NCBI GenBank assembly: GCA_051362555.1
Contig: CM120649.1
Coordinates: forward strand, 7,006,001-7,070,000
DNA length: 64,000 bases
Direction: 5' to 3'
DNA from: Lingula anatina
Taxonomy: Eukaryota > Animalia > Brachiopoda
A model generated the notes under the pieces. That model was not told the origin of the DNA and searched no databases. It was given only the letters and a program-made list of their open reading frames with translations. The position numbers and the translations under genes were made by a program. Of the stretch, positions 2,115 through 58,675 are shown in pieces. Position 1 is the stretch's first letter, and each line of letters begins with the position of its first letter.

Positions 2115-5100
2115 ATGTCAGACAGTTCATCAGCAACGATAGCAGATAGCACATTGAAGGACTCGCAGTCATCATCGCAGATGTATCAGAGCTCCTTGGC
2201 TATGACTGAAAAAGTGCTCGGAGAGCAGGAATATGAAACACAATTCTTTGGTTTTACCCCGAAGTCCTTTACTGATGGAGGTACGATGGTTTGTTGTCCA
2301 GATATATAATATGTATCGACAATTTAAGAAGCAGTTATGTTAGTGTAGTGGGCATGTTTATTAACTTATTTGCAACATGGTTATTACATGAATCTTTTTC
2401 TTTAACTTGTCAAAAGTAAAACTTAAATGGTTCTTAGTTGACATAGCAGTACATCTGATTCATTGCAAATATTTGTTACTTGCAGAAATAAAAACTGTTC
2501 ATATGAGATTGATATTTTCACAGTAAATACACTGTAAACAACTCACTGAAGTATAAATTAAATATTACCACCAAAATGGCATTTATCGCAATTATTTTGG
2601 AATCTGTGCTTGCCATCAGACCACATGGACCTTCATAGATGGCTATATCTCCATAATAATCCTGCAAGTTTACAAAAAAACTTTTTTAGGAAAAAAAAAA
2701 CATGGACTTATTTTGAATATCAAAATGGATTTTTTTTTTTTTTTTTGCCAAATAGAATTTGTTTTCCCTCTTATTATGCATTTTGATTATATGCATCTTT
2801 CCAAATACTCTGATGCAAAGCATGTGAACCACTTGGGTCAACTCCCTCATTGTTCTCAAACTGGCAAATCATTGCTCTTGAAAATTAAAGCACAAGGAAT
2901 GTATTAGGCCAATTTTAACTTGTAGTTCCATTAATGACTTTACTGTTATATGTACTGTATAAATGTCATTGTTTGTATTTTGTTTTTCAGTTTATAATGC
3001 TGTGAATGAATACCTCACAGACTGTCTGGAAGTGGTAGAGAAATACATCATTCAAGAGGTATATTTATTTACTTATTTTATTTGATATCCATGTGATGAC
3101 AACAGTGTCAGTGTACTAATGAGACAGGAACCTTTCTTCATATAATTTTTGAAAATCAACACAACTAAGTTAGGGGCGGATTTAGGCCATCTTCTGGGTC
3201 TTCTGGAAGAAGGTCAGATTTTCAAGTTTACATTGATGAGTACCTTTTTTTTCTGTTGGAAAACAGTCAAAAATGGAGAATAGATCTACAAAGATTTAGA
3301 AGACTGTCAGAAAATATCTCTGGATCCTCCCCTGTTAGTTTCTTATTATAGTGGAGGATCTATGATGGCTAAGAAGAGGGAAAGAGTTTTTGCCTCCCTC
3401 CTATAAATACTCCCTGTATAATAAAGTTTCAACATTTCAGTTCAGTGCCGTCATCCCAGCAGAAACAGTGAGAGAATGTACACAGCAGTTGCTGCCTGTG
3501 TTTGTGAAGACTTTTGACAAAGCATTTGATAAGTTAGAGGTGCAGTTGGTTTTTAGACTTTGAAAGAGCATTTGATATTATTTATGTGCGTTTTGTTTGT
3601 ACAGTGCATTTGGTTTAGAGATTATTCTGACAGTAGGGAGTTTGATACATGGCACATAAGCATATAAGACCCCATTCCATCCAATAATAGTTTATCTATA
3701 ACATTACATTTACATGTTTGAAAAATAATTATTAATTCGCACAATTACATCCACTCTTAAATCTTTAACTCTGATTAAAGTGTCCCCTCTTAGAGGAATA
3801 TATTTATATTCTTTATATTTTTTGTGTGTACATTCAACAGCACCATTTTCGACTTTCCATTTATGTATGATGGCTTTAAATGGGAAATCTTTAAATCATC
3901 TCTTTTCAGAATTATCTTCTCTGTAACATATTTCACATTCCCAACAATGTGTTACTTCCCGAAGACAAGCCCCAAGAGTTTCAGTACACAGAGCTGGAGC
4001 AGGAAGAGATCGACAGGGACCTGGAGACACTGAGACAGAAGATCAGAAATGTAAAGTCCTATTTACACTGGATGGCGTCCTTTCTGAGTCCCCATTTGAG
4101 AGTTTAAAAAAATACATGCTGACAATTGGCTGATCATTGAGCATTCATTTTGCAACCAAAGCGATGCTTGTGCCTCCTTTCTACGACCACGGCAATGCCA
4201 GTTTCATGGTCGCACAAAGGACGCAGAAAGGATGCTGCTGAGTGTAAGGGGGGTTTAAGGGGCTGTTTTTGGCCAAATTTCAGAAAATTTTCAATTGTTT
4301 ACGTATATTCTCTTATATATCCGCCCTACTCCCTGTTTACTCACAAATAGTGGTTTTTACCTGAGGATGACATTATATATATAATATAATCAATATCTTT
4401 TGCAACACATATGTTGAACATTTTGTATTGGAAGGTTCATAGAGAGCATTTACATCGAGAAGAGCCGAGGTCTAGCAAGGCTGAGACCTAAATATGGCGG
4501 ACCTTCACGAAAGGAAGACTGCGTAATCCTTTAATGGTCTCTCAATGACATTCATTGACATCCATATTTAGGTCTCGACCTTGCTAGACCTTGGCTCTTT
4601 GCGATGTGAATGCTCCCATAGTTTTTTATCTTTGATAGATTTGATAGTTTTGGATGTCAAGTGAAAACCTTGGGTTTCATTTTAGAGACACAGTGTATAT
4701 ATGTTGGGGAATTATTTATGAAAGTAAATGAGTAGCCTCAAAGTGTGTTCTCTAGGAACTGTTAAATCTACCAACAAACAAGGTTCTGCTTGCATGTTTC
4801 TGTTTGTGAGAGGACACACCGGACAGAAAAAAGTGATTGCAATCTGAATCTGGGTCTCCTGATATATTTGAAGTCATTTTTATTTTGTTATTTACAGGTC
4901 TGCTCACAGGGAGCACTCTCTAGATTGAAATGAGTATTTTAATCCTCTTTTCAGGCCAAGTATGTAAATGCCTGTTTGGAGCAGGAATTGAAGGACATAG
5001 CCACAGTTCAGGAACAGTACGACAAGATGCTGACTCTGCTGGAAAGGCTGGAAAAGACGACTATGTCTGCAGGAGGTAGAAGGAACAATCTCTCTCTCTC

Positions 5101-5754
5101 TTTCTCTTTCTCTCCCTCTCTGCCATCATTGAAATTATATGATGAAGAAATTTGCAATATATTGACAGGTTTTTGTGATTTTGCGGATGGAATAATTTGA
5201 TTGGTTATTTTACTGGGATAGGAGCTGTCCAAATACCCCTCCCCCTTCATACATGTACATGTACACACAGACACCTGCAGGCACATGCACACACACACAC
5301 ACACACACACAGTTGTCTCTGGTTATGGACTTATTCTGTTACTGTTCTCTTCAGCCCATTTTTTTTAGAACTTAGCCCAGGGGCAAGAATGTTCCAGTAA
5401 TATCCTACTATTATCAGTGATGAGCTTTGTGTATTGGATCTTGATATTTATTTTCAAATTTGTAAAAGAAATGTTCATACTTACCATTGTAGCCATCGTT
5501 TATACTGTTTCTATGATCAATTCCTTAATTTTCAGTTCCTGGCTTGAAGGAAAGTTTGGTATTCACTTGTGACAAGGTTCGAGCACTGAACACAAGAATA
5601 CAGGAACTAAAACCGCTTTCGCCACCACGCTTTAAGGTGATGGAATACATATTTTTATTTATAGTTATGTAAATACATTGCTTTGTCAGTTTATAATAAT
5701 ATTTTATAAAACAATTCAGTATTTGTATTCATTTGTTTTTTTAATTAGGTCTAA
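2115..5754 (+). CDS. MIS12: Kinetochore protein Mis12 homolog, 7 coding exons, about 233 aa
   Basis: Exons 2115-2280, 2991-3058, 3441-3539, 3910-4050, 4955-5075, 5536-5636, 5749-5754; all GT-AG and frame-consistent (702 nt). Contains the Mis12 signature EYETQFFGFTPKSF..VYNAVNEY, then FDKLE-YLLCNIFHIPNNVLLPED and a C-terminal coiled coil. The last 6-nt exon is less certain; read-through of the last intron would stop at 5672. Confidence 0.88.
3172..3334. mobile_element. Non-autonomous DNA element with AGGGGCGGAT-type termini
   Basis: Begins AGGGGCGGATTTAGG and ends CTGGATCCTCCCCTG (imperfect inverted termini). Similar ends occur at 19385-19621. Confidence 0.5.
4440..4620. mobile_element. MITE with about 60-bp imperfect terminal inverted repeats, in MIS12 intron 4
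   Basis: TAGAGAGCATTTACATCG..GGTCTAGCAAGG..GAGACCTAAATATGG is mirrored by CCATATTTAGGTCTC..CCTTGCTAGACC..CGATGTGAATGCTCCCATA. Confidence 0.8.
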
Positions 5755-7173: not shown

Positions 7174-7952
7174 ATGGCGACTGATCACGATCGCGGCGAT
7201 TGTAGCTGGATCCCAATCGTCGATTTAAAGGCGTTTGACATCACAAAAGAAGAAAATGAAGTCGACAGAAAAGATCTGGAAAAGCTTGCTAATGATGTGT
7301 TCAAAGCTTTCAGCACCATAGGATTTGTTTATGTCAAAAATCACGGAATTCCCCAAGATCAGGTTAGCGAGCACGCTGCCGGCTGTTCAGCGGTTAAAGG
7401 CAGTGGCTTATGCAATTTGACGAAAGTGCCGGTGTTTCTGTAATCATTTTACGTAACTGTTAATTGTTGTATTTTGTTGCGAAGTTGAGTTTGATGTTTT
7501 CGCATTTAAATCATAACTAACAGTGTCAAGCTTATATAAGTTATAATTAGATGACCTTACAGAGTGGACGAGGGCAAGAACATTGGGGGGGGGGGGGGGG
7601 GGGGGTAATCGATTTATGTTGCCTCCATTTTATCATATCAAGGAGCGGCAGGTGTGAGAAAATCAGATGAACTTGCAGTCGGAGGACAGTTGGCTATCAG
7701 TAACGTTGAGATATACGAAGAGTTTATCTTGGTTCAAGGCTTTCGAGAGGTGAAGGGGGAAAGGGGGGGCGAGCTGCATGTACGTGCGCCTGTCAGCGTC
7801 TGCCTCTCTGAAAATGAGTCGGATTATGGAATGATTATTTTGTGATATCTGAAGGCTATACTTAACAAATGTATTGATTAATTAATTTATTTATTCATTC
7901 CATTCATTTATTTGTTTGTTTGTCTATTTATTTATTTATAATAATAATAATA

Positions 7953-8011
<59 letters not shown>

Positions 8012-10496
8012 ATCATGTGTTTTGCATTTTGGTGATTTACATTGGTACTATTTGTTATGTTTTGTTTACTCTTAATTTTCATTTTTAGATGAATAAACCT
8101 TTACAGTTAACCATTATTATTCATTCACTTACATAAAATTACATCTTTTACCCCAGAAAATTGTCCTGATGATTATTGTTATATATCAAAATGTATTGTT
8201 TCAAAGCCATGTTGGTAGGAGCACTGTTATTATCCAAAACTCACGAAAAAAAATATTTTTTTCAAAGGGTTTCATTCCTCTGTATTTTCAGATTGACAAT
8301 ATATTCAGGTTGTCAGATGAATTTTTTGCACAACCACAAGAGACCAAAGATAAATTCGTCCGTCCAATGTCTGATCCTGCTGCAATTGGTTACATTCCAA
8401 TTGGAAGAGAATAGTAAGTTTTTTTTTTATACAATACAGACACTGAACCAGTGATATCACTTACACACATACACAAAAAGGCCATACACAATCATTTGAT
8501 CCACGGACACACTAGTCCACGAATCAAGTATGATCAAGTATGACAATTAATTCCTGCCTAGCTCCCACGCTTTCCGTCCCAGCAGGGGCAGAGCAATAAA
8601 TTCTCAGCACACTGTCAAGTGGGTCACGCCATTTTAGATTTGCAGACAAGTTAGTCCATGGATCAAGTGTTTGTGTATGCAGCCAATCAGCTACCTTTCC
8701 ACTCCTTACAAGTATCTGCAGTCACTTATTCTATAGATTTATGTAGAACTATTGATACTTTTTCCTCACGGAATATTGGAGAGAATTATAATGAAGTTTA
8801 CTTCGGATAGGACACATACAAGTATGTAACATGGGTTACTGGGAGCTGCCGATGTGACCGAAAATTCCATTAATTGCTAGCTGGAAGAACATTTTCTTTG
8901 AATGACTGTGTTTTATATTTTCATGGCATTTTAGAGTATTTTCAATCTTAGTATGTCTTCATAGTTGTAGTGTTTATAGTCACAGTTTGATTTCACAATA
9001 GCTTTGAAATATGAATAAAAAACTCAAAAATGAACATTTTTCACTTTTATTGCATAGCTATTGTAAATATGAGTATTATCTATAGCTAATGAATCTATTT
9101 ACACACATCATAGTTTTTTATCGAAACAGAATGTTCTGAACTTGTTTCTAGTTTGTCAGATGATGTAAAAATTCATTTGGACAGAAATATTTAAATGTTG
9201 ATATATATTTCAATTTGAATTAGAAACACTTTGAAAATGTTGTGTTCTAAACATTTTGCAAGCTCCTATTTTCATGGTTTTGCTCTAGTTTTGATGCCAA
9301 CAAACCTGCTGACCTCAAAGAATCATTTGACGCTGTCCCAGGAAGTGAATATTCTCAGGTAAGACAAAAAAAAGCCAGATAAAAGTTTATTTGCAGTCAA
9401 GATTTAGAGATATAGATAAGGATTTTATTGTTAATTTTGCGTCTGAAAAGCAATGCTATAACATGCATACATAGTAAAACACGAAGAAAGAAAGATAAAT
9501 TTCAATATTACATGATTTATTGGCTGAGTTTTATTTTCAGTACTGGCCAAACATACCAAACTTTGAGGAGGATGTTGTTAAGTTCCACAGAACGTGTGCC
9601 AAGCTGGGCTTACGATTGCTCAAACTGATTGGAATGGGATTAGGACTGGAGGTAATGTGTATATATTTAGGTAGACCACATCTGTCTTGAAAAGTTCAAA
9701 CTTGTTGGGGGAGGATATGAAGTGTGTACTTTGTAATGCTCTGCTGGATCTTATTGTGAGGCTTTTGAAAGCAGAAAAGAAGTGGACAAGAAGAAGTGTT
9801 CATTTCCTGTCAGAATGGAGTCTTGTACACGTATTCAATCAAGTTGGGCAAACCAAATTTAATAAAACTCAATATTTTCTTTATTTCTTGGCTCACTAAA
9901 GTCTTGTTTCTATTAAAGTTGGGTTCACCAAACATTGTGATTTAGGAAGCCTAATAGAATATAATGGCTAACCTCAAGTACAGTTCTGGTATATTAAAAA
10001 CAACATAGGGGGTGCGTACTTAAAGATGTCAGACATACTCACTAGTCATGACTCCATTTAAGTTAGGTTGACCTTACTTAGTGAATCCTATCTCAGTTGG
10101 CTCTTTCATTATGATAAAATGGCTATAGGAAGCCTGTTGAATGGAAATGTTGGAGTCCGCAAAACTTCTGAAAGTCTGATATCAATGTAAGTGCCCAGTA
10201 TTATAGTTTTTACTATAAAAATAATTAAAATATTATTTTTTTGCCTTTGAACTGGATGAATCATAATTTACATTCTAATGACTTGAATGTGGACTTAGTT
10301 TACAAACATCTGTTACTTTTCAATAACTATGGAGCCAAATATTTTCATTCCTTTAGAAGTTGTACATGTACAATCCAATATCAGAAAAGAAAATCCAATC
10401 TAAAGAGATGCTGAGTGTTTTGATTGAAATACCCATTGTCACAAATATGTGACATTTTATAAGTCATATAGTAGTTGTGTACAACAACATTCACAG

Positions 10497-10527
<31 letters not shown>

Positions 10528-13500
10528 GTTAAAAAGATCAGAGAGAAAAGATAAAGTGAGAGATGAATGTGAATAATGGACAATTTTATAAGAAATGGGA
10601 TTTCAAAATGAAATTGAATTATGTTATGGGAATACTATATATATAGTAAATGCCATGTATCCATTTTTCTTATATTTGCCTTTGGCCGTCCTTAGCAAAT
10701 GAGATGTACACTAGTTGAAAAAAATGATTCTGACTTCATGTATTTTTTTTTTTAAGGGAAGTTTTTCTTTCTTTCTAGGTCTGCATATTTTTTTGTTAAA
10801 GAACACCAAAAGTGAAAGTACAACAGTGAAAGTTTTCTTTTTCAGGACTCTGAATTTTTTGTAAAAGCACATGAAAAGATCAGTTCAAGAGCCAGCAATA
10901 ACACAGCCATTTTGCGTCTTCTGCACTATCCGCCTGTGAAGGACGGTGAAGGTACAGGGAATTATGGGAAGACTAATGAGTATGGTGGGCTATCACTGAA
11001 AAGTAACACTTTTAAGGCATACAATGTGTATAAGACCTTTATACAGCTGAAAATAATTTTCCTGTTTTCAGGTTTTATCTTTGATTCATTCTTGTATTAG
11101 AGATGGAAACTGGGGAATGCTACTTTTGACAATATACCATGAAAAATTAAGAGGGGAAAAGGATTGAAATTTCGCTGAAAAAAATCTATATATTTTTTTT
11201 TATTTTGATGTTTGAATGTCTATCACACATTGTGTGCCTTTAGAAGAGGAATTTCAATTTTTTTGCCCAAAAAGTGGTTTTGAACCAGCTGTAACTGACC
11301 ATGCATGTATTTGATAATGATGATATAAATTTGGGAGATAGGTGGTCGTATATAACTAATATTTCTTTGGTGTTTTTAGTGACTGCTTTCCCATTGTGTC
11401 TAGCACTTTATGCTGTGGCATTACAAAAAACGTTCTTTTAGTTGTAGCTAGAAGTCTTTTTTTTTTTTTTTTTGTCTTGCTTACTAAGTACTGTTTGGTG
11501 GTTTTCAGTTCTGGCAATGCCATTCAAAATGTACATGAAAGAGTCACACATAGAGCAGCTGCATGCTATTAATTTACTATTTTTGTTTTTATTTTTTATT
11601 AGGGCTTAATCTTTAGGTTCTCTAACATCTTTTTATACTCCCTGTTATTTTTGTTTTAGGTGTGTTGCTCTATTAATATGCATGTGTTGAAGAATATCAC
11701 ATATTGCACTGCTTACCTTTTTCATTAAAAATGTGGGTTTTGTTATATTTGTGTGCTGTCTTATTTTCGTAGGACCAAAATGAGTTGCTTATGTGTCATA
11801 CACATCTTGAAAATTGGCGTAATAACAGCACAACAAGTTTGCGGCTTTTGACCTATCCTGCACGTACTGAAGAAGAAGGTAGCAAGGGCTTGAAAGCAGG
11901 CTTTGAAAATCGCTTCACTATAGAAAGCTCACCATTTTATCAAAAAATAACTGCCATGAAAAAGTTTCTAGTCTATGTCATATACACTACCCCCATGCAA
12001 AATGTCAGTTAATTAAAAAGATTGGTCAGTAGTACTCAATGAAATTTATTTGGTTACTGGCCACTGTTTCTAATTTGGCCCATTCTTTGACCCTGTTGAC
12101 CTGAAGGACCAGTTAGCATGCTAAAAAGGTCTTGGCAGTGTATAAGTTTTATTAAAATCAGTTGAAACCTGGAAAAATCAAATTGTAAATTGCAGGTGCT
12201 TTATATGCAGCCTGGCTCACTTGAAGCTGTTGGTTGTCAGAATCATTTATATTTTAGCATAGTATGAGTTTCATTAAAATCACTTATAAGTACAGGAGCA
12301 ATCAAATTGGCAATTGTAAGTGCTTTATATGCAGCCTGGCTTACTTTGCACTGTTGGTTGTCGCAGTTACGTATGTGCTTGGCAAAATATGTATAGACTA
12401 ATGGTGTGCTTTGGGTTACTTGGAACAAGGTTCTTCCAGCTCTTGATCACATGATTATATAACTTGTTGTTATCCTATTTTTTGTTAAAGAAAGCTTCCA
12501 TATGCTAGATAGCCGAGGAGGTTTTGAAGGGCTCATTTACATTGAAACTATTGGTCTAAGTAGGTCAATCTGTTAAACTGATTGCAGGTGAGAGTCTCTT
12601 AGGAGTTGATCTACAGAGGCAGATGTTTTCAATGAGAATGAACCCAAACCTATTTCATATTTCTACATTCCTATTATCTCTCTTATTTACACCTTTTGGT
12701 GATCATTTAATGTAGCCATTTTTAGATATGCGTCTATATAACAGTTTTCTCAAGTGTTATGTGTGATTTTAACAATAAGGAGAATAACACAACATTTTCT
12801 GAGTGACATTTATTTCTTTTGTTTTCAGACTTTCTGCCAGACCAGACACGCTGTGGTGAACACACGGATTACGGCTCCATGACTCTGCTCTTCCAGGATG
12901 ACACTGGAGGCCTGGAGGTAATTGTGTTGGGTGTGACATTGTGCGTGTTGTGTTAGGTGTGACAATTTGTCAGCTGGGGCAGTGTGTTAGGTGTGACAAT
13001 GTGAAATGGTAACCTTCTGTAATATTGTTGGGACAGTGTGTTGGGTGTGAGAGTGTGCCACCTTTGTTAGATGTGACAGTGTGCCAGCTGAGACATTTTG
13101 TTAGGTGTGATAATATGTCAGTTGGGACAGTGTGTTAGGTGTGACACTTTGCCAGCTGGGACAATGTGTTAGATGTGACAATGTCAGCTAGGGCAATGTG
13201 TTAGGTGTGACAATGTGTTAACTGGAGCAGTGTGTTAGGTGTGACAACTTGTCAGTTGGGACAGTGTGTTGGGTGTGACAAGTGTTAGTTGGAACATTGT
13301 GTTACGTATGACAATATGTCAGTATGTCAATTGTCATATAGTGACATTTTGTAATATAGTGACACTGTGAAATGGTAACCTTCTGTAATATAATATAATA
13401 TCACTTTGTGATACAGTGACACTGATGTAGTGACAATGTGATATAATGACAGTTTGTTAGGTGTGACAATGTGTCAGCTGCATCTGACAATACTTTCAAA

Positions 13501-15896
13501 CTTCACCAGGTCCAGACAGTGAACGGGGAGTTCAAGCCAGCCACGCCCATACCAGGCACTGTGGTGGTCAACATAGCCGACATGATGCAGAGGTGGACAG
13601 CGGATGGACTCAAGTCCACTGTGAGTACATGTCCACTACACTGGTGTTTTCTAAGGCCTTCTTCCCTGTTAGTGTTGACTGACTAATTGTCTTTTGATTG
13701 CGTGCTGTCTACTACTCTGCTTTGACTAAGTGTTTTGGTGCCTCAGTCATCCACCGTATTGTATATGAGGGTGGCACTTACAAATAGAAATTTTAGTGTT
13801 CTTGCATTGGTTTTGATGTATATTTTAGTTTAACAGCTAATTGTGTCTTAAGTAAACAGTGGTTTTTGGATTGTTAAATTCATTGATATGGTTATGTTTT
13901 ATTGTGTCTTGATGATCTGAACCAGAGAAATTAGTTCTTAAAGTTTGGAAATGACGTTCTGATCAACAAGGTACATTTTTTTTCTTTACTGGACTCACTC
14001 TATCTTTGTCTCTTTACTCGAGCATTTTAAAAGTAATCTCATTTTTTAATTTACTTTGTTTTGCATCAGTGGTATGTCTAATTTTCCACTGCTCAAAAAA
14101 TGATTTTTATGCACCTTTAAATTTCCAAAAGAAACCAAAAAAAAAAACCATACAAAGCACATGGACTGTCCATACACTCACGGGAATACCAAACAGTGAC
14201 TTTTGTAACCTAGGTTTTTGACCAGAATTTTGTACTTGAATGAGATTGATTTAAAAAAAAAGCTCATTTCTTCACTATTTCATGACATTGGAGTGAGTCC
14301 TGTTTTATGTTGTGCTCTTCTTAATTGGCTTTAAGAACAGGTTTAACAAAAGAAAAAAAATGTTTTTGAACATATTTCAGAATGTAGACTCTTGATATGA
14401 ATCTCATATTAGTAATAATAGTTTTTAATATTTAATCCCTTTAAACCTTGCTATTTGTAATGTTTGCTTACCATTCATCATCCACTGCCAAAGGTTCACA
14501 AGCATTGTGTGCCAGCTTCCTTTTCAAATTTCCGTGCAATCTCACTTCACACCTCTGACTTTCAGTGATTAAGTTTTACTATAATTATCACAAAATATTA
14601 GATTGGTATACATTAATTATGGCACATGCCCTTCTATTAAGCCACCTAATCTTCACACACATTGTCAGAGTCTGATAAGTCTGGTAAGCTGAACCATGGT
14701 AGTTTGACAATGGAAAAAACTGGCAAACATCAAATCTTAAGCTCATATTAGATTCACAGAGTATGACAGAGGTTTACCTGGTTGTAATGAAGCGTCTACA
14801 TCCTGATGTAAAAACTGAAAACATTTTTTTGTCAAAACTGTTCTGTAAATGGCCTTGACCTTTCAGTGTTGTGTTCTTCCTTTTTCTAGCCCCACCGTGT
14901 TGTACCCTCCAATAAGAGGAAGGCACGTAGAAGTGTAATCTATTTTATCGACCCTGATCGCTCTACGATTGTGAGGCCCCTAGATGGGTCTAACAAATAC
15001 CCTCCCATCTCTTATGTTAACTACCTATCACAGAGATTTGCTGACACGGGAATGCTTGAAGGAAACGAAGTCATTAACACAGCTGCATAAGTTTGCATGT
15101 AAGATTTTTTTTGTTGTTTTGTCTTAAAAAATCCTGAATGTAAGCTTAATTTGCTTTTTATGGCTTTGTTGCGCTTTGTTACTGTTGCTTCGTAAGCATT
15201 CCATTTGATGGTTGAGGCATTTGTGATTTTTTCTCAACAATTTTGCAGGGATTTTTGAAAAATTATTTATTTATCAAATTATAAATTTGTTTATACTTTC
15301 ACTTGCTTCTGTTTTGGAGCATGAAAAAAACATCACTTTTAGCTTAGTTCCTAGCTTTTTCTTTCCCCTTAACTAAATTTTAATCTGCCCCTTGGGTTTT
15401 TATGAGTTGATACTGTACTCACTGGTAGAACCAGATTTTTCATTATCACTGTACTCACTGGGAGAACCAGATTTTTCATTATCACTGTACTCACTGGGAG
15501 AACCAGATTTTTCTAAAATGGCACAGAGAGTTTTGTCAGATTTGTGTTATCACCATTGTAATTTTGTAAAAATTATAGTTAAATTTTTTTGTTCTTTTTT
15601 AAAGATATTCACAGTAGTAAACAAAATCCTACATGTTTTGCCTGTACTTGACCCACTGACCTTAACCAACTGACCTTCACCCACTGACCTTGACCTTTTC
15701 ATTGTAGTGTCACAGAGTGATCCCCCATAGGAAGACCAAACCAAGGCGTTCTATGGCATTTTTCATTGATCCTGATGGGGACGCAGTGATTGCGCCTTTG
15801 GACAATTCCAAAAAGTATCCACCAATAAAGTTTATAGACTACTTCAACAAACGTTATGAAGAAACAGGAATGACTCGGGAGGAACATATACAGTAG
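7174..15896 (+). CDS. 2-oxoglutarate/Fe(II)-dependent dioxygenase (DIOX_N + 2OG-FeII_Oxy, IPNS/ACC-oxidase-like fold), about 328-332 aa, with duplicated alternative exons
   Basis: Constant exons 7174-7362, 8292-8413, 9289-9358, 9541-9651, 12829-12917, 13510-13620. Alternative exon 5 is 10846-10951 or 11773-11878; the terminal exon is 14890-15090 or 15708-15896. Motifs: IPIVDL, GFVYVKNHGI, DLKESF, LRLLHYPP, CGEHTDYGSMTLLFQD..GGLEV (HxD), VVNIADMMQRWT...KST-xHRV (distal His), RRS (RxS). Confidence 0.92.
7954..8010. repeat. (TTA)n microsatellite
   Basis: Perfect trinucleotide run. Confidence 0.95.
8480..8685. mobile_element. MITE-like dispersed repeat (second copy inverted at about 54868-55056)
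   Basis: Ends TTGATCCACGGAC and GTCCATGGATCAA. The core GTCCCAGCAGGGGCAGAGCAAT..TCTCAGCAC..TCAAGTGGGT is the reverse complement of sequence at about 54918-54967. Confidence 0.7.
10761..10815 (+). pseudogene. Decayed partial copy of the exon 5A acceptor and 5' end
   Basis: Pyrimidine tract plus AG ending at 10778. In the +1 frame it reads SAYFFVKEHQK* versus DSEFFVKAHEK in exon 5A. Confidence 0.6.
10846..10951 (+). CDS. Dioxygenase alternative exon 5A (DSEFFVKAHEKISSRASNNTAILRLLHYPPVKDGE)
   Basis: TTTTTCAG acceptor, G|GTACAG donor, 106 nt, phase 0 in and phase 1 out, open reading frame. Confidence 0.9.
11773..11878 (+). CDS. Dioxygenase alternative exon 5B (DQNELLMCHTHLENWRNNSTTSLRLLTYPARTEEE)
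   Basis: TTTTCGTAG acceptor, G|GTAGCA donor, 106 nt, same phases as 5A, open frame, aligns to 5A without gaps. Confidence 0.85.
12920..13490. repeat. Degenerate minisatellite (about 33-bp unit, GTGTGTTAGGTGTGACAATGTGTCAGCTGGGACA) filling dioxygenase intron 6
   Basis: TGTTAGGTGTGACA recurs many times across the intron. Confidence 0.85.
14890..15090 (+). CDS. Dioxygenase alternative terminal exon 8A (PHRVVPSNKRKARRSVIYFIDPD...NTAA*)
   Basis: TTTTTCTAG acceptor, phase 0, 66 codons plus TAA. Carries HRV, RRS, FIDPD and KYPPI. Confidence 0.88.
   Translation, partial: PHRVVPSNKRKARRSVIYFIDPDRSTIVRPLDGSNKYPPISYVNYLSQRFADTGMLEGNEVINTAA
15412..15512. repeat. 36-bp tandem repeat, about 3 copies, between exons 8A and 8B
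   Basis: ACTGTACTCACTGG(G/T)AGAACCAGATTTTTCATTATC repeated. Confidence 0.9.
15708..15896 (+). CDS. Dioxygenase alternative terminal exon 8B (CHRVIPHRKTKPRRSMAFFIDPD...EHIQ*)
   Basis: TTTTCATTGTAG acceptor, phase 0, 62 codons plus TAG. Same motifs as 8A; an AATAAA lies downstream at about 16778. Confidence 0.88.
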   Translation, partial: CHRVIPHRKTKPRRSMAFFIDPDGDAVIAPLDNSKKYPPIKFIDYFNKRYEETGMTREEHIQ

Positions 15897-17339
15897 ATGG
15901 TTTATATCTAATGAGACAATCATGTTACTTAACTGATTACATTTTGACGTTGCCTAACATTGTCTTCAGGATTATGCCAAGATTATATGTTTATTTGTAT
16001 TGATAATGCTGAAAATGTCAAGATGTTTTCTCTTAGAAATTATGACATTCATAATTGGTTTAATTTGACAAAGTAAATAATCCATCCACACTGTTGATGA
16101 TGCGGGAATATAACTGCTGGTATTTGAAGAAAGTGCTTGTTTCACTAAACACCTTTGGACCATTTGGACCATTTTTCTTTAAAATTAAAAAAAAAATTAA
16201 ACCATTGAAAATACTCTGTTGTGTCTGTGCCTAAAGTTATAGTGATTTTATTGGTTTGAAAGCTGTATATACAGGTTTTATATTTGATGATTGATATTGC
16301 TTTATGATATTATCTGGGTTGTTGACTTTTTTCCCAACAAGTGGCAATTTTTGGCCACTATTTTGGCTTCATAATTCTGTGAAAGTTAAGTGTGCAATTA
16401 TATTCTTTTGGTTGCTTTGAAGGTTTATGATTTGAATTATTAGATTAAGTTTTTGAAATTATTGTAAAGCTTTCAGCAAGCTTTTTTAAACCAATTATTA
16501 TTTGAAATTCCGAAGTGTTCGTAAAAAACATAATGGCACTTTTAAGCTATGCTGTATATATTTTTCTTTCATTTACCTGATTGTCTTATACCAAATTTAA
16601 GCCAATATTTAGGCATTTTTACAAAGTGGCAATATTTTAATTTGTTTACTCTTTTTGTTAATAAGCGATTGTGGAAAGACTGAAAAGCATTTTTAAAATT
16701 ATTAGTTTCAATCATTGTTGGATGGGAGCTGTTGAATTATTCAGATGAAAGTGTCACATTGTTGTTGATCAATTGGGAATAAAGCAGTAGGTTGATTGGT
16801 TACTTGCACATGTATTATTTGTTTATTTAATATATTTTGGAAATCTGAATACTTTTTATTCAAGTTCCTGAACATAAGCTAATAGGAGCAATCGGGGGGG
16901 GGGAGCAATTTTCTTCATGTAATGTTCAATTTGGATAAGGGAATGACACTTTATATGTGTAAAATATCACGTATTCCCTCACCTTCTCTTTTATTTGTCC
17001 TTTTTGTTTATTCTTGTTGCAGTCCGTGAATTAGTTCTAGTATTTATTTATTTATTTATTTATTTATTTATTATTATTATTTTTATTTTTTTGAAGAGCT
17101 TTAACATTCAGGTTAGTCGAACATACATGAAAAGCTGCGTGGTTCACACAGGCACTGTGTTCAATTCTGCTTTAAAATCTTTAGTAACAGTACGCTCTAG
17201 GACAACAAAGATTTAAACGTTAGAATTTATAACACCGACGTTTGGGCCTACTGTATGGGGAACAAGCGTCCTGTCTTTCTTATTTCAAAAATATTAAGAA
17301 AGTATGTGGACCCACTTTGACGCACCACACCTTACAATG

Positions 17340-18949: not shown

Positions 18950-19162
18950 TACCTTCTACCAGGGCGACTGATAGATTTTTACGGATATTCACAGATATGT
19001 CTCTAGCTAGATAGATTGTCATTTTAACTCTAAGTCACTTAGCTAGATAGATTGTCATTTTAACTCTAAGAGTTAGAATTAGAGTTAAAATGACAATCTA
19101 TCTAGCTAGAGACATATCTGTGAATATCCGTAAAAATCTATCAGTCGCCCTGGTAGAGGGTA
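18950..19162. mobile_element. Foldback MITE with 84-bp near-perfect TIRs and a 9-bp TSD (Mutator/MULE-like)
   Basis: 18950-19033 is the reverse complement of 19079-19162 with one mismatch. GTGCATGTG is duplicated at 18941-18949 and 19163-19171. Confidence 0.88.

Positions 19163-20530: not shown

Positions 20531-20540
<10 letters not shown>
20100..20540 (+). promoter_or_regulatory. CpG-rich DGK promoter/5' UTR with ETS-like and YY1-like motifs
   Basis: CACTTCCT at about 20119, CGGAAGT at about 20512, and CAAGATGGCG overlapping the ATG at 20531. These are motif matches only. Confidence 0.4.

Positions 20541-58675
<38,135 letters not shown>

Follow-up and report, generated by a model that had tools for sequence, protein, structure and literature searches.

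The KRAS gene carries two exons, 4A and 4B, that are classed as homologous 3′ coding exons (PMC8373072), and exon 4B is described in both mRNAs, untranslated where it follows the 4A stop (PMC5945503, PMC12683732). Homologous C-terminal exons usually come from alternative polyadenylation (PMC8373072), a route to which the KRAS cassette is an exception (also PMC9882654). Here we describe a related arrangement in the brachiopod Lingula anatina, in a stretch of 64,000 nucleotides (nt) (GenBank assembly GCA_051362555.1, contig CM120649.1, positions 7,006,001 to 7,070,000 of the forward strand), hereafter the window, whose numbering is used throughout. On its + strand lies a gene for a predicted 2-oxoglutarate (2OG)-dependent oxygenase with two homologous exons, 8A and 8B, each ending in its own stop codon. 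As in KRAS4A/4B, the upstream homologous stop exon is optional, and the downstream exon is found in both mRNAs and translated on skipping only. KRAS, however, swaps a membrane-targeting tail, while the Lingula swap involves an iron ligand, the 2OG-binding RxS motif, a substrate-stacking Phe and a lid helix, as assigned by sequence.

Splice-driven changes of enzyme specificity are known from coq-2 and CYP4F3, and rebuilding of a catalytic core is called rare (PMC7434440). In both cases, as in Lingula, duplicated or alternative exons (6a/6e in coq-2) remodel the enzyme core with few differences near the active site; but those exons are internal and mutually exclusive and their substrate switch has been demonstrated (PMC7434440), whereas the Lingula exon-8 pair, at the end of the coding region, is exclusive at the protein level only. 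Tandem-duplicated, alternatively spliced exons of ancient bilaterian origin are also described in P4HA1 (PMC8373072). The Lingula gene differs from this case in lying outside the prolyl 4-hydroxylase family and in that its duplication appears lineage-restricted. P4HA1 is itself a 2OG-dependent dioxygenase, with internal duplicated exons, so that the enzyme class already has a duplicated-exon precedent. A literature search at listing level found no publication on the exon duplications, cassette mechanism or switch of the Lingula gene, and no functional study of the animal oxygenase family.

Usage of the two exons was read from eight of nine Lingula RNA runs (X1 to X7 and X9, leaving out X8) belonging to three studies, chosen by species label, of which 6–30% each was read, both mates being counted separately. 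Exon 7 (13510-13620, +) has one GT donor common to both copies, and 8A (14890-15098, +) and 8B (coding part 15708-15896, +; 62 amino acids (aa), TAG) are each preceded by an AG acceptor in phase 0. A first-pass annotation, made from the letters alone, had taken both for functional alternative last exons and had proposed junctions 13620->14890 and 13620->15708 as the check; both were found, with 126 and 74 reads over the eight runs (19 of the 126 were placed at 14893, an allele altering the first codon being the cause). A further 88 reads join 15098 to 15708, that is, 8A to 8B, and all three junctions are GT..AG. The coding sequence of 8A (14890-15090, 66 aa) ends in a TAA at 15088-15090, and the GT donor 8 nt past it (15098/15099) is used in seven of the eight runs. 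Read depth behind this donor is zero in every run (bin 15132-15249 in four of four, bin 15197-15337 in the other four of four), and the stretch from 14800 to 15823 is free of AATAAA and ATTAAA. Because it is spliced onward, 8A is a 209-nt cassette exon, and on its inclusion 8B serves as 3′ untranslated region (UTR). Onward splicing and zero depth past the donor mean that both mRNAs share an 8B-derived 3′ end (15897-16800, +, end approximate, with read depth to ~16780-16900), and both appear to finish near the AATAAA at 16778; the A-form mRNA carries the 8B coding sequence as additional UTR.

Three features of the KRAS arrangement are found here: a stop exon that is both included and skipped, a downstream exon present in both mRNAs, and homology between the exons. 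Those of an alternative last exon, namely a poly(A) site of its own and the lack of onward splicing, were not found for 8A. Calling 8A terminal was hence wrong, and the two separate 3′ UTRs proposed along with it are a single shared one; what stands of that claim is that both exons are used and that both look constrained. Translation through the 8A stop into 8B was considered and rejected, 8B being out of frame with 8A. As a separate observation, the coding sequence of 8B itself contains an AATAAA (15824-15829), and many first mates start at 15879-15881 in runs X2 and X3, where 8A dominates. This signal could mark an early poly(A) site, open to use only in transcripts that have 8B as UTR, but a spacing of 52 nt is long and the mate starts may reflect library bias.

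The two forms are used very unequally across samples. Reads for exon 7 to 8A, 8A to 8B and exon 7 to 8B numbered, respectively, 31, 25 and 1 in X1; 36, 19 and 6 in X2; 47, 22 and 2 in X3; 0, 3 and 27 in X4; 2, 0 and 20 in X5; 1, 8 and 1 in X6; 2, 4 and 6 in X7; and 7, 7 and 11 in X9. The corresponding estimates of 8A inclusion are 0.97, 0.82, 0.95, 0.05, 0.05, 0.82, 0.33 and 0.39, so that inclusion spans ~0.05 to 0.97. Reads of X7 and X9 diverge 3–5% from the window, with many differences that look fixed, and both isoforms are still used in them; these runs may stem from a distinct population or a cryptic lineage.

That 8A and 8B are homologous exons with their own stops and phase-0 acceptors, as the first reading of their translations had it, was borne out. 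They align without gaps over their first 57 codons, with 28 of 57 residues identical, and their local BLOSUM62 score is 175 against a best of 59 in 5000 shuffles. Nucleotide identity at codon positions 1, 2 and 3 is 30/57, 40/57 and 16/57; different codons are used for 20 of the 28 identical residues, and the proportion of synonymous differences (pS) is saturated at 0.86, against 0.38 for nonsynonymous ones (pN). This pattern argues that the pair is an old duplication maintained under protein-level constraint. Among the read variants listed, 11 of 14 sites in 8A and 7 of 8 in 8B are synonymous, with rough pN/pS values, based on these variants only, of 0.086 and 0.036 (binomial p 2.5e-5 and 9.2e-5); two of the three listed 8A replacements fall in the tail beyond the lid helix. 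A single junction in use, with one copy evolving at a nonsynonymous to synonymous rate ratio (dN/dS) near 1, had been named beforehand as the outcome that would speak against two functional exons; instead, both junctions were read and the listed variants are mostly synonymous.

Two exon-8 copies only were found in the window, by tblastn and by a hidden Markov model (HMM) of 114 sequences, and an HMM scan of the window showed no further duplicated exons. A word-indexed search with exon 8B alone gave no match. A third copy, suggested by a hybrid loose-end consensus in X9, was rejected, as this consensus fits a mix of short 8B and longer 8A reads. Short TGACC-type repeats precede 8B (15642-15698), with a matching 14-mer before 8A (14850-14863); they are possible branch-point motifs or a remnant of a duplicated intron.

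The exon 7 frame runs on into 8A, giving a protein of 332 aa, or into 8B, giving one of 328 aa. From its domains, the gene is predicted to encode an oxygenase of the DIOX_N plus 2OG-FeII_Oxy type (IPNS/DOXC-like): RefSeq proteins P0267, P0269 and P0151 score 81.5–84.1 bits for DIOX_N (PF14226) and 73.4–80.3 bits for 2OG-FeII_Oxy (PF03171), above the curated cut-offs of 27.3 and 23, and the iron triad H211, D213, H268 and the 2OG motif R279, S281 are complete in both isoforms. A profile search with both exon-8 copies against 1.84 billion representative proteins returned, at E 2e-36, a 343-aa protein of Lingula anatina, 'UPF0676 protein C1494.01' isoform X1. Compared with the two versions annotated in RefSeq, which are probably alleles, the A protein of the window has 2 and 3 differences in 332 residues. 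RefSeq holds isoforms X1–X4 of the gene (XP_013412357/9/60 and XP_013406537/8/40/41, at two Lingula loci), of which X1 and X3 end in 8A and X2 in 8B, X4 carries exon 5B (see below), and X1 and X2 measure 343 and 339 aa; both C-termini are present at both loci, by automated annotation only. Among the best 120 of 2560 matches, relatives ~40–46% identical occur in cnidarians, molluscs, annelids, hemichordates, echinoderms, amphioxus and fish. Two AlphaFold models, which together span all four duplicated exons, have mean predicted local distance difference test (pLDDT) scores of 90.9 and 89.2, and their closest fold is Neurospora thymine-7-hydroxylase (T7H; Foldseek E 1e-28; Z 37.5, root-mean-square deviation 2.2, 292 residues aligned). 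T7H (5C3P) is also the closest solved structure by sequence (E 9.8e-44).

The iron ligand encoded in this part of T7H is H271; 2OG is bound by R286, S288 and V273, and F292 stacks on the substrate. The pocket is closed by the C-terminal helix 10 together with Y324 and R328, and this helix is essential (PMC4787775). Residues were mapped with a 2-residue numbering offset derived from H271 of that paper. Equivalents of R190, L192, Y194, H214, D216 and Y217 (5C3P/5C3Q), and in the C-terminal part of H271, V273, R286, S288, F292, Y324 and R328, are present in both Lingula isoforms. On the other hand, N87 is replaced by Ala94 and N294 by Asp287, overall identity is 32–39%, and only the first three members of the T7H substrate-contact set (Y217, F292, R190, N87, N294) are kept. 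The Lingula protein has a T7H-like fold and is not classed as T7H.

Catalytic residues kept while their neighbours differ, as the first-pass annotation had put it, is an accurate description of the swap: H268, R279-x-S281 and F285 are retained in both exons, and between them 8A has Ile283 and Tyr284 where 8B has Ala283 and Phe284. At residue 283, two past the RxS serine, 8B shares its Ala with T7H and with 77 of 108 other homologues; Val is found in 25 of the 108 and the Ile of 8A in two, and Tyr284 in only one. Ile/Val283 and Tyr284 nonetheless recur in the annotated Lingula paralogues. In EFE, A281 is said to interact with O2 and with the C1 carboxylate of 2OG (PMC10467617; PMC11668244), and residue 283 corresponds to it by register from the 2OG-binding Arg. 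The Ile/Ala283 difference is the clearest candidate for a pocket-facing change. Lid-helix neighbours and the tail also differ, and many of the 8A/8B differences sit in the tail, which is modelled with low confidence, and in the loop that follows the His strand. The idea that the swap changes the pocket lining is accordingly weakly supported, since the T7H-defined contacts are identical and Ile/Ala283 and lid-helix residues are the candidates. 8B seems to keep the ancestral Ala283 and Phe284 and 8A to have the derived pair, for which reason 8A may be the more specialized form.

A second duplicated pair, together with an alternative donor, had been overlooked in the first reading. Exon 5A (10846-10951, +, 106 nt) encodes the strand with R188, L190 and Y192, equivalent to the 2OG-binding R190, L192 and Y194 of T7H. 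Exon 5B (11773-11878, +, 106 nt) has AG/GT ends, an open frame and the same length and phase; it was located through the differing exon 5 of RefSeq isoform X4 (P0151), found at one allelic locus. An intron of 821 nt separates the two, 11 of 35 residues are identical and the R-x-L-x-Y strand is kept. The shuffle test for this pair is marginal (score 48 against a best of 47 in 5000 shuffles), and among 15 candidate AG...GT segments of 106 nt 5B scores best after 5A itself and one segment overlapping 5A. Including both exons or neither shifts the frame, with an early stop at aa 203 or 182, which would allow nonsense-mediated decay (NMD) to enforce exclusivity. No convincing docking/selector pairing was found among the inverted repeats listed (25 of 29).

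Read ends adjoining exon 6 agree with 5A at 0.99–1.0 in the runs that cover this junction, X2 (35 ends), X3 (52) and X5 (24), and 5B, which differs from 5A at 14 of the 30 letters compared, was not seen among the ends listed for them. We infer that 5B makes up a few percent of transcripts at most in these three runs, even where 8A dominates. In X2 and X3, where 8A dominates, the exon 5 ends nevertheless match 5A, and a link between 5B and 8A was therefore rejected for these two runs. The 5B of the window and that of the RefSeq allele differ at 2 of 35 residues, so 5B may be under weaker constraint. The alternative donor extends 5A by an in-frame 33 nt (10952-10984, +), adding 11 aa in a loop, and was read 14 times in X2, 12 in X3 and 5 in X5, ~17–29% of read ends; RefSeq isoforms X1 and X2, of 343 and 339 aa, also speak for it, and the insert loop has low confidence (pLDDT <50 at 203-206).

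Three annotated Lingula paralogues, 61–68% identical overall, bear on the history of both pairs. They match 5B at 24–25 of 35 residues and 5A at 11–12, and they match 8A at 34/53, 34/53 and 30/49 against 22/53, 21/53 and 21/49 for 8B. Trees were built with 36 named homologues of 108 (exon 8, 43 rows and 57 columns; exon 5, 33 columns). In the exon-8 tree 8A groups with four paralogue rows (support 98/87), 8B is sister to them (89/36), and the whole group joins one Logan fragment (98/88), apart from other animals; in the exon-5 tree 5B groups with the paralogues (100/100). Furthermore, 8A and 8B share derived features, namely Pro296 (Cys in 97 of 108), a shorter loop and a tail extension. From these sequences we read an exon duplication restricted to this lineage, after which gene duplications retained the derived 5B and 8A types. 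In the annotated proteins of the Lingula paralogues only 5B- and 8A-type sequence is present, and the exon duplications are likely older than these paralogues.

Twelve comparisons of isoform pairs from amphioxus, corals and a limpet showed no equivalent exon-8 swap. Homologues P0103, P0140 and P0122, with two matching stretches each, were set aside as other duplications or model errors distinct from the 8A/8B arrangement. Three observations concern other members of the family. Paralogue isoforms P0152 and P0286 (X1, X2) have 18 scattered differences over residues 206-327, suggestive of duplicated 3′ exon blocks or merged tandem genes. The lid Arg (R328 in T7H) is absent from all three Lingula paralogue representatives. 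The amphioxus LOC144923418 isoforms P0158, P0172 and P0293 show scattered substitutions over residues 2-50 and 76-148, possibly from independently duplicated N-terminal exons in the same family, or from chimeric gene models.

Taken together, we think it probable that one gene yields two oxygenase C-termini by inclusion or skipping of 8A, and that these differ in the shape of pocket and lid rather than in core chemistry. On skipping of 8A, exon 7 is joined to 8B in frame, for 328 aa; on inclusion, the frame stops within 8A, at 332 aa, and 8B, spliced on behind it, becomes 3′ UTR. Since only 8 nt separate the stop from the last junction, and the threshold for junction-dependent decay is ~55 nt (PMC13247117), the A-form mRNA would be expected to escape NMD. 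A stop-carrying cassette would in this way impose mutual exclusivity at the protein level without exclusion machinery, as in KRAS4A/4B. The 5A/5B pair could alter the other 2OG-binding strand, 5B being rare or absent in the samples able to show it. An acceptor and a stop of its own in each exon would suit true alternative last exons with separate poly(A) sites and 3′ UTRs, chosen by alternative polyadenylation; in human genes, homologous C-termini usually arise in this way (PMC8373072). This model is largely refuted for these samples by the 88 reads from 8A onto 8B, the empty depth past the donor and the lack of a poly(A) signal described above, and we hold it to be extremely improbable. A cassette exon with an in-frame stop also has the usual look of a poison exon, whose inclusion would lead to a degraded transcript or to no working enzyme, splicing setting the level of the B enzyme; with a stop so close to the last junction, an A form that dominates steady-state mRNA in X1–X3, and an 8A that encodes a complete and constrained catalytic end, such a role is scarcely credible.

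Several points weigh against a functional switch between two C-termini. Neither the equivalents of H271, V273, R286, S288, F292, Y324 and R328 nor the Asp at N294 differ between 8A and 8B. The two isoforms may hence catalyse alike, and this identity tells against a large change in chemistry. The pocket placement of residue 283 comes from sequence register rather than from model coordinates, the pN/pS values rest on variants from reads filtered at 92% identity, and escape from NMD assumes that the ~55-nt rule holds in brachiopods. Samples are coded, with tissue, condition, individual or genotype and study confounded, and X6 amounts to 10 junction reads. As to history, 5A does not group with 5B in the exon-5 tree and is placed elsewhere without strong support, and no other brachiopod sequence was recognized among the matches listed; when shorter proteins were searched with the 5B-8A region, the 120 listed of 154 matches reached 62% identity at best and included no recognizable brachiopod fragment. 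The same splicing with equivalent enzymes, the switch acting on mRNA or protein level (a 3′ UTR longer by 197 nt, another tail) or being tolerated redundancy, would accord with the identical contacts and with the many differences in the post-His-strand loop and low-confidence tail. Against it, both copies are still constrained after synonymous saturation, Ile283 and Tyr284 are rare in the family yet recurrent in the paralogues (as Ile/Val and Tyr), and usage is switch-like across samples, so that we regard it as unlikely. Cis-acting splicing variants between individuals or populations, in place of regulation by tissue or condition, are suggested by the fact that the well-covered high-inclusion runs X1–X3 are one study, the closest to the window, the other runs carrying many variants. 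But within study P2 inclusion is ~0.05 in X4 and X5 while X6 has 8 reads from 8A to 8B against 1 for skipping, and the diverged X7 and X9 contain both forms, which makes a genetic cause very unlikely. A broader reading, in which two independent exon switches (5A/5B and 8A/8B) and the loop insert form a combinatorial active-site kit that remodels both 2OG-binding strands and the lid to serve tissue-specific substrates, with later paralogues fixing 5B and 8A, is a tentative one and in our opinion rather doubtful.

The remainder of the gene, on the same strand, consists of the exon 1 coding part (7174-7362), which holds the start ATG and the beginning of DIOX_N (Pfam E 3e-8) and agrees with RefSeq proteins P0001/P0267; exon 2 (8292-8413), with AG/GT ends, an open frame and a family HMM match; exons 3 (9289-9358) and 4 (9541-9651), from the gene model and also matching the family HMM; and exon 6 (12829-12917), which carries the HxD ligands H211 and D213, Y214 and a piece of Pfam 2OG-FeII_Oxy. 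In this gene model, exons 1–7 have GT donors throughout, exons 2–7 have AG acceptors, and the frame is single and open; the exon 6-exon 7 junction is covered by reads in four of four runs. Intron 6 contains a degenerate tandem repeat (12920-13480) that draws opposite-strand reads running into unrelated sequence, and probably has copies at other places in the genome. With a G+C fraction of 0.36 the window is AT-rich animal DNA, and the oxygenase gene is flanked by a MIS12 gene and by another gene starting at 20531. The MIS12 kinetochore gene (2115-5640, +; Pfam Mis12 E 6.5e-7 for 3910-4047) ends ~1.5 kb upstream. The downstream gene has exons at 22900, 26662 and 27511 that resemble the PH domain of diacylglycerol kinase delta/eta, a presumptive assignment; the one exon tested had no Pfam match. 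In the intergenic region, at 18955-19157, lies by eye a near-perfect palindrome of ~200 bp, possibly a miniature inverted-repeat transposable element (MITE).

The novelty of this locus is limited in that its class of mechanism has precedents and RefSeq already lists the protein isoforms; its lesson for annotation is that a stop codon does not by itself make an exon the last one. Its interest lies in a splice event that would rebuild a catalytic core, confirmed by reads and switch-like between samples, in an animal family that extends from corals to fish. As the two forms differ in a single exon, the A/B pair offers a clean comparison for the substrate, for the residue two past the RxS serine and for the lid helix. 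If the combinatorial reading were true, the gene would be a natural case of splice isoforms becoming paralogues, and it would give a handle on the substrate of a widespread animal IPNS/T7H-like family.

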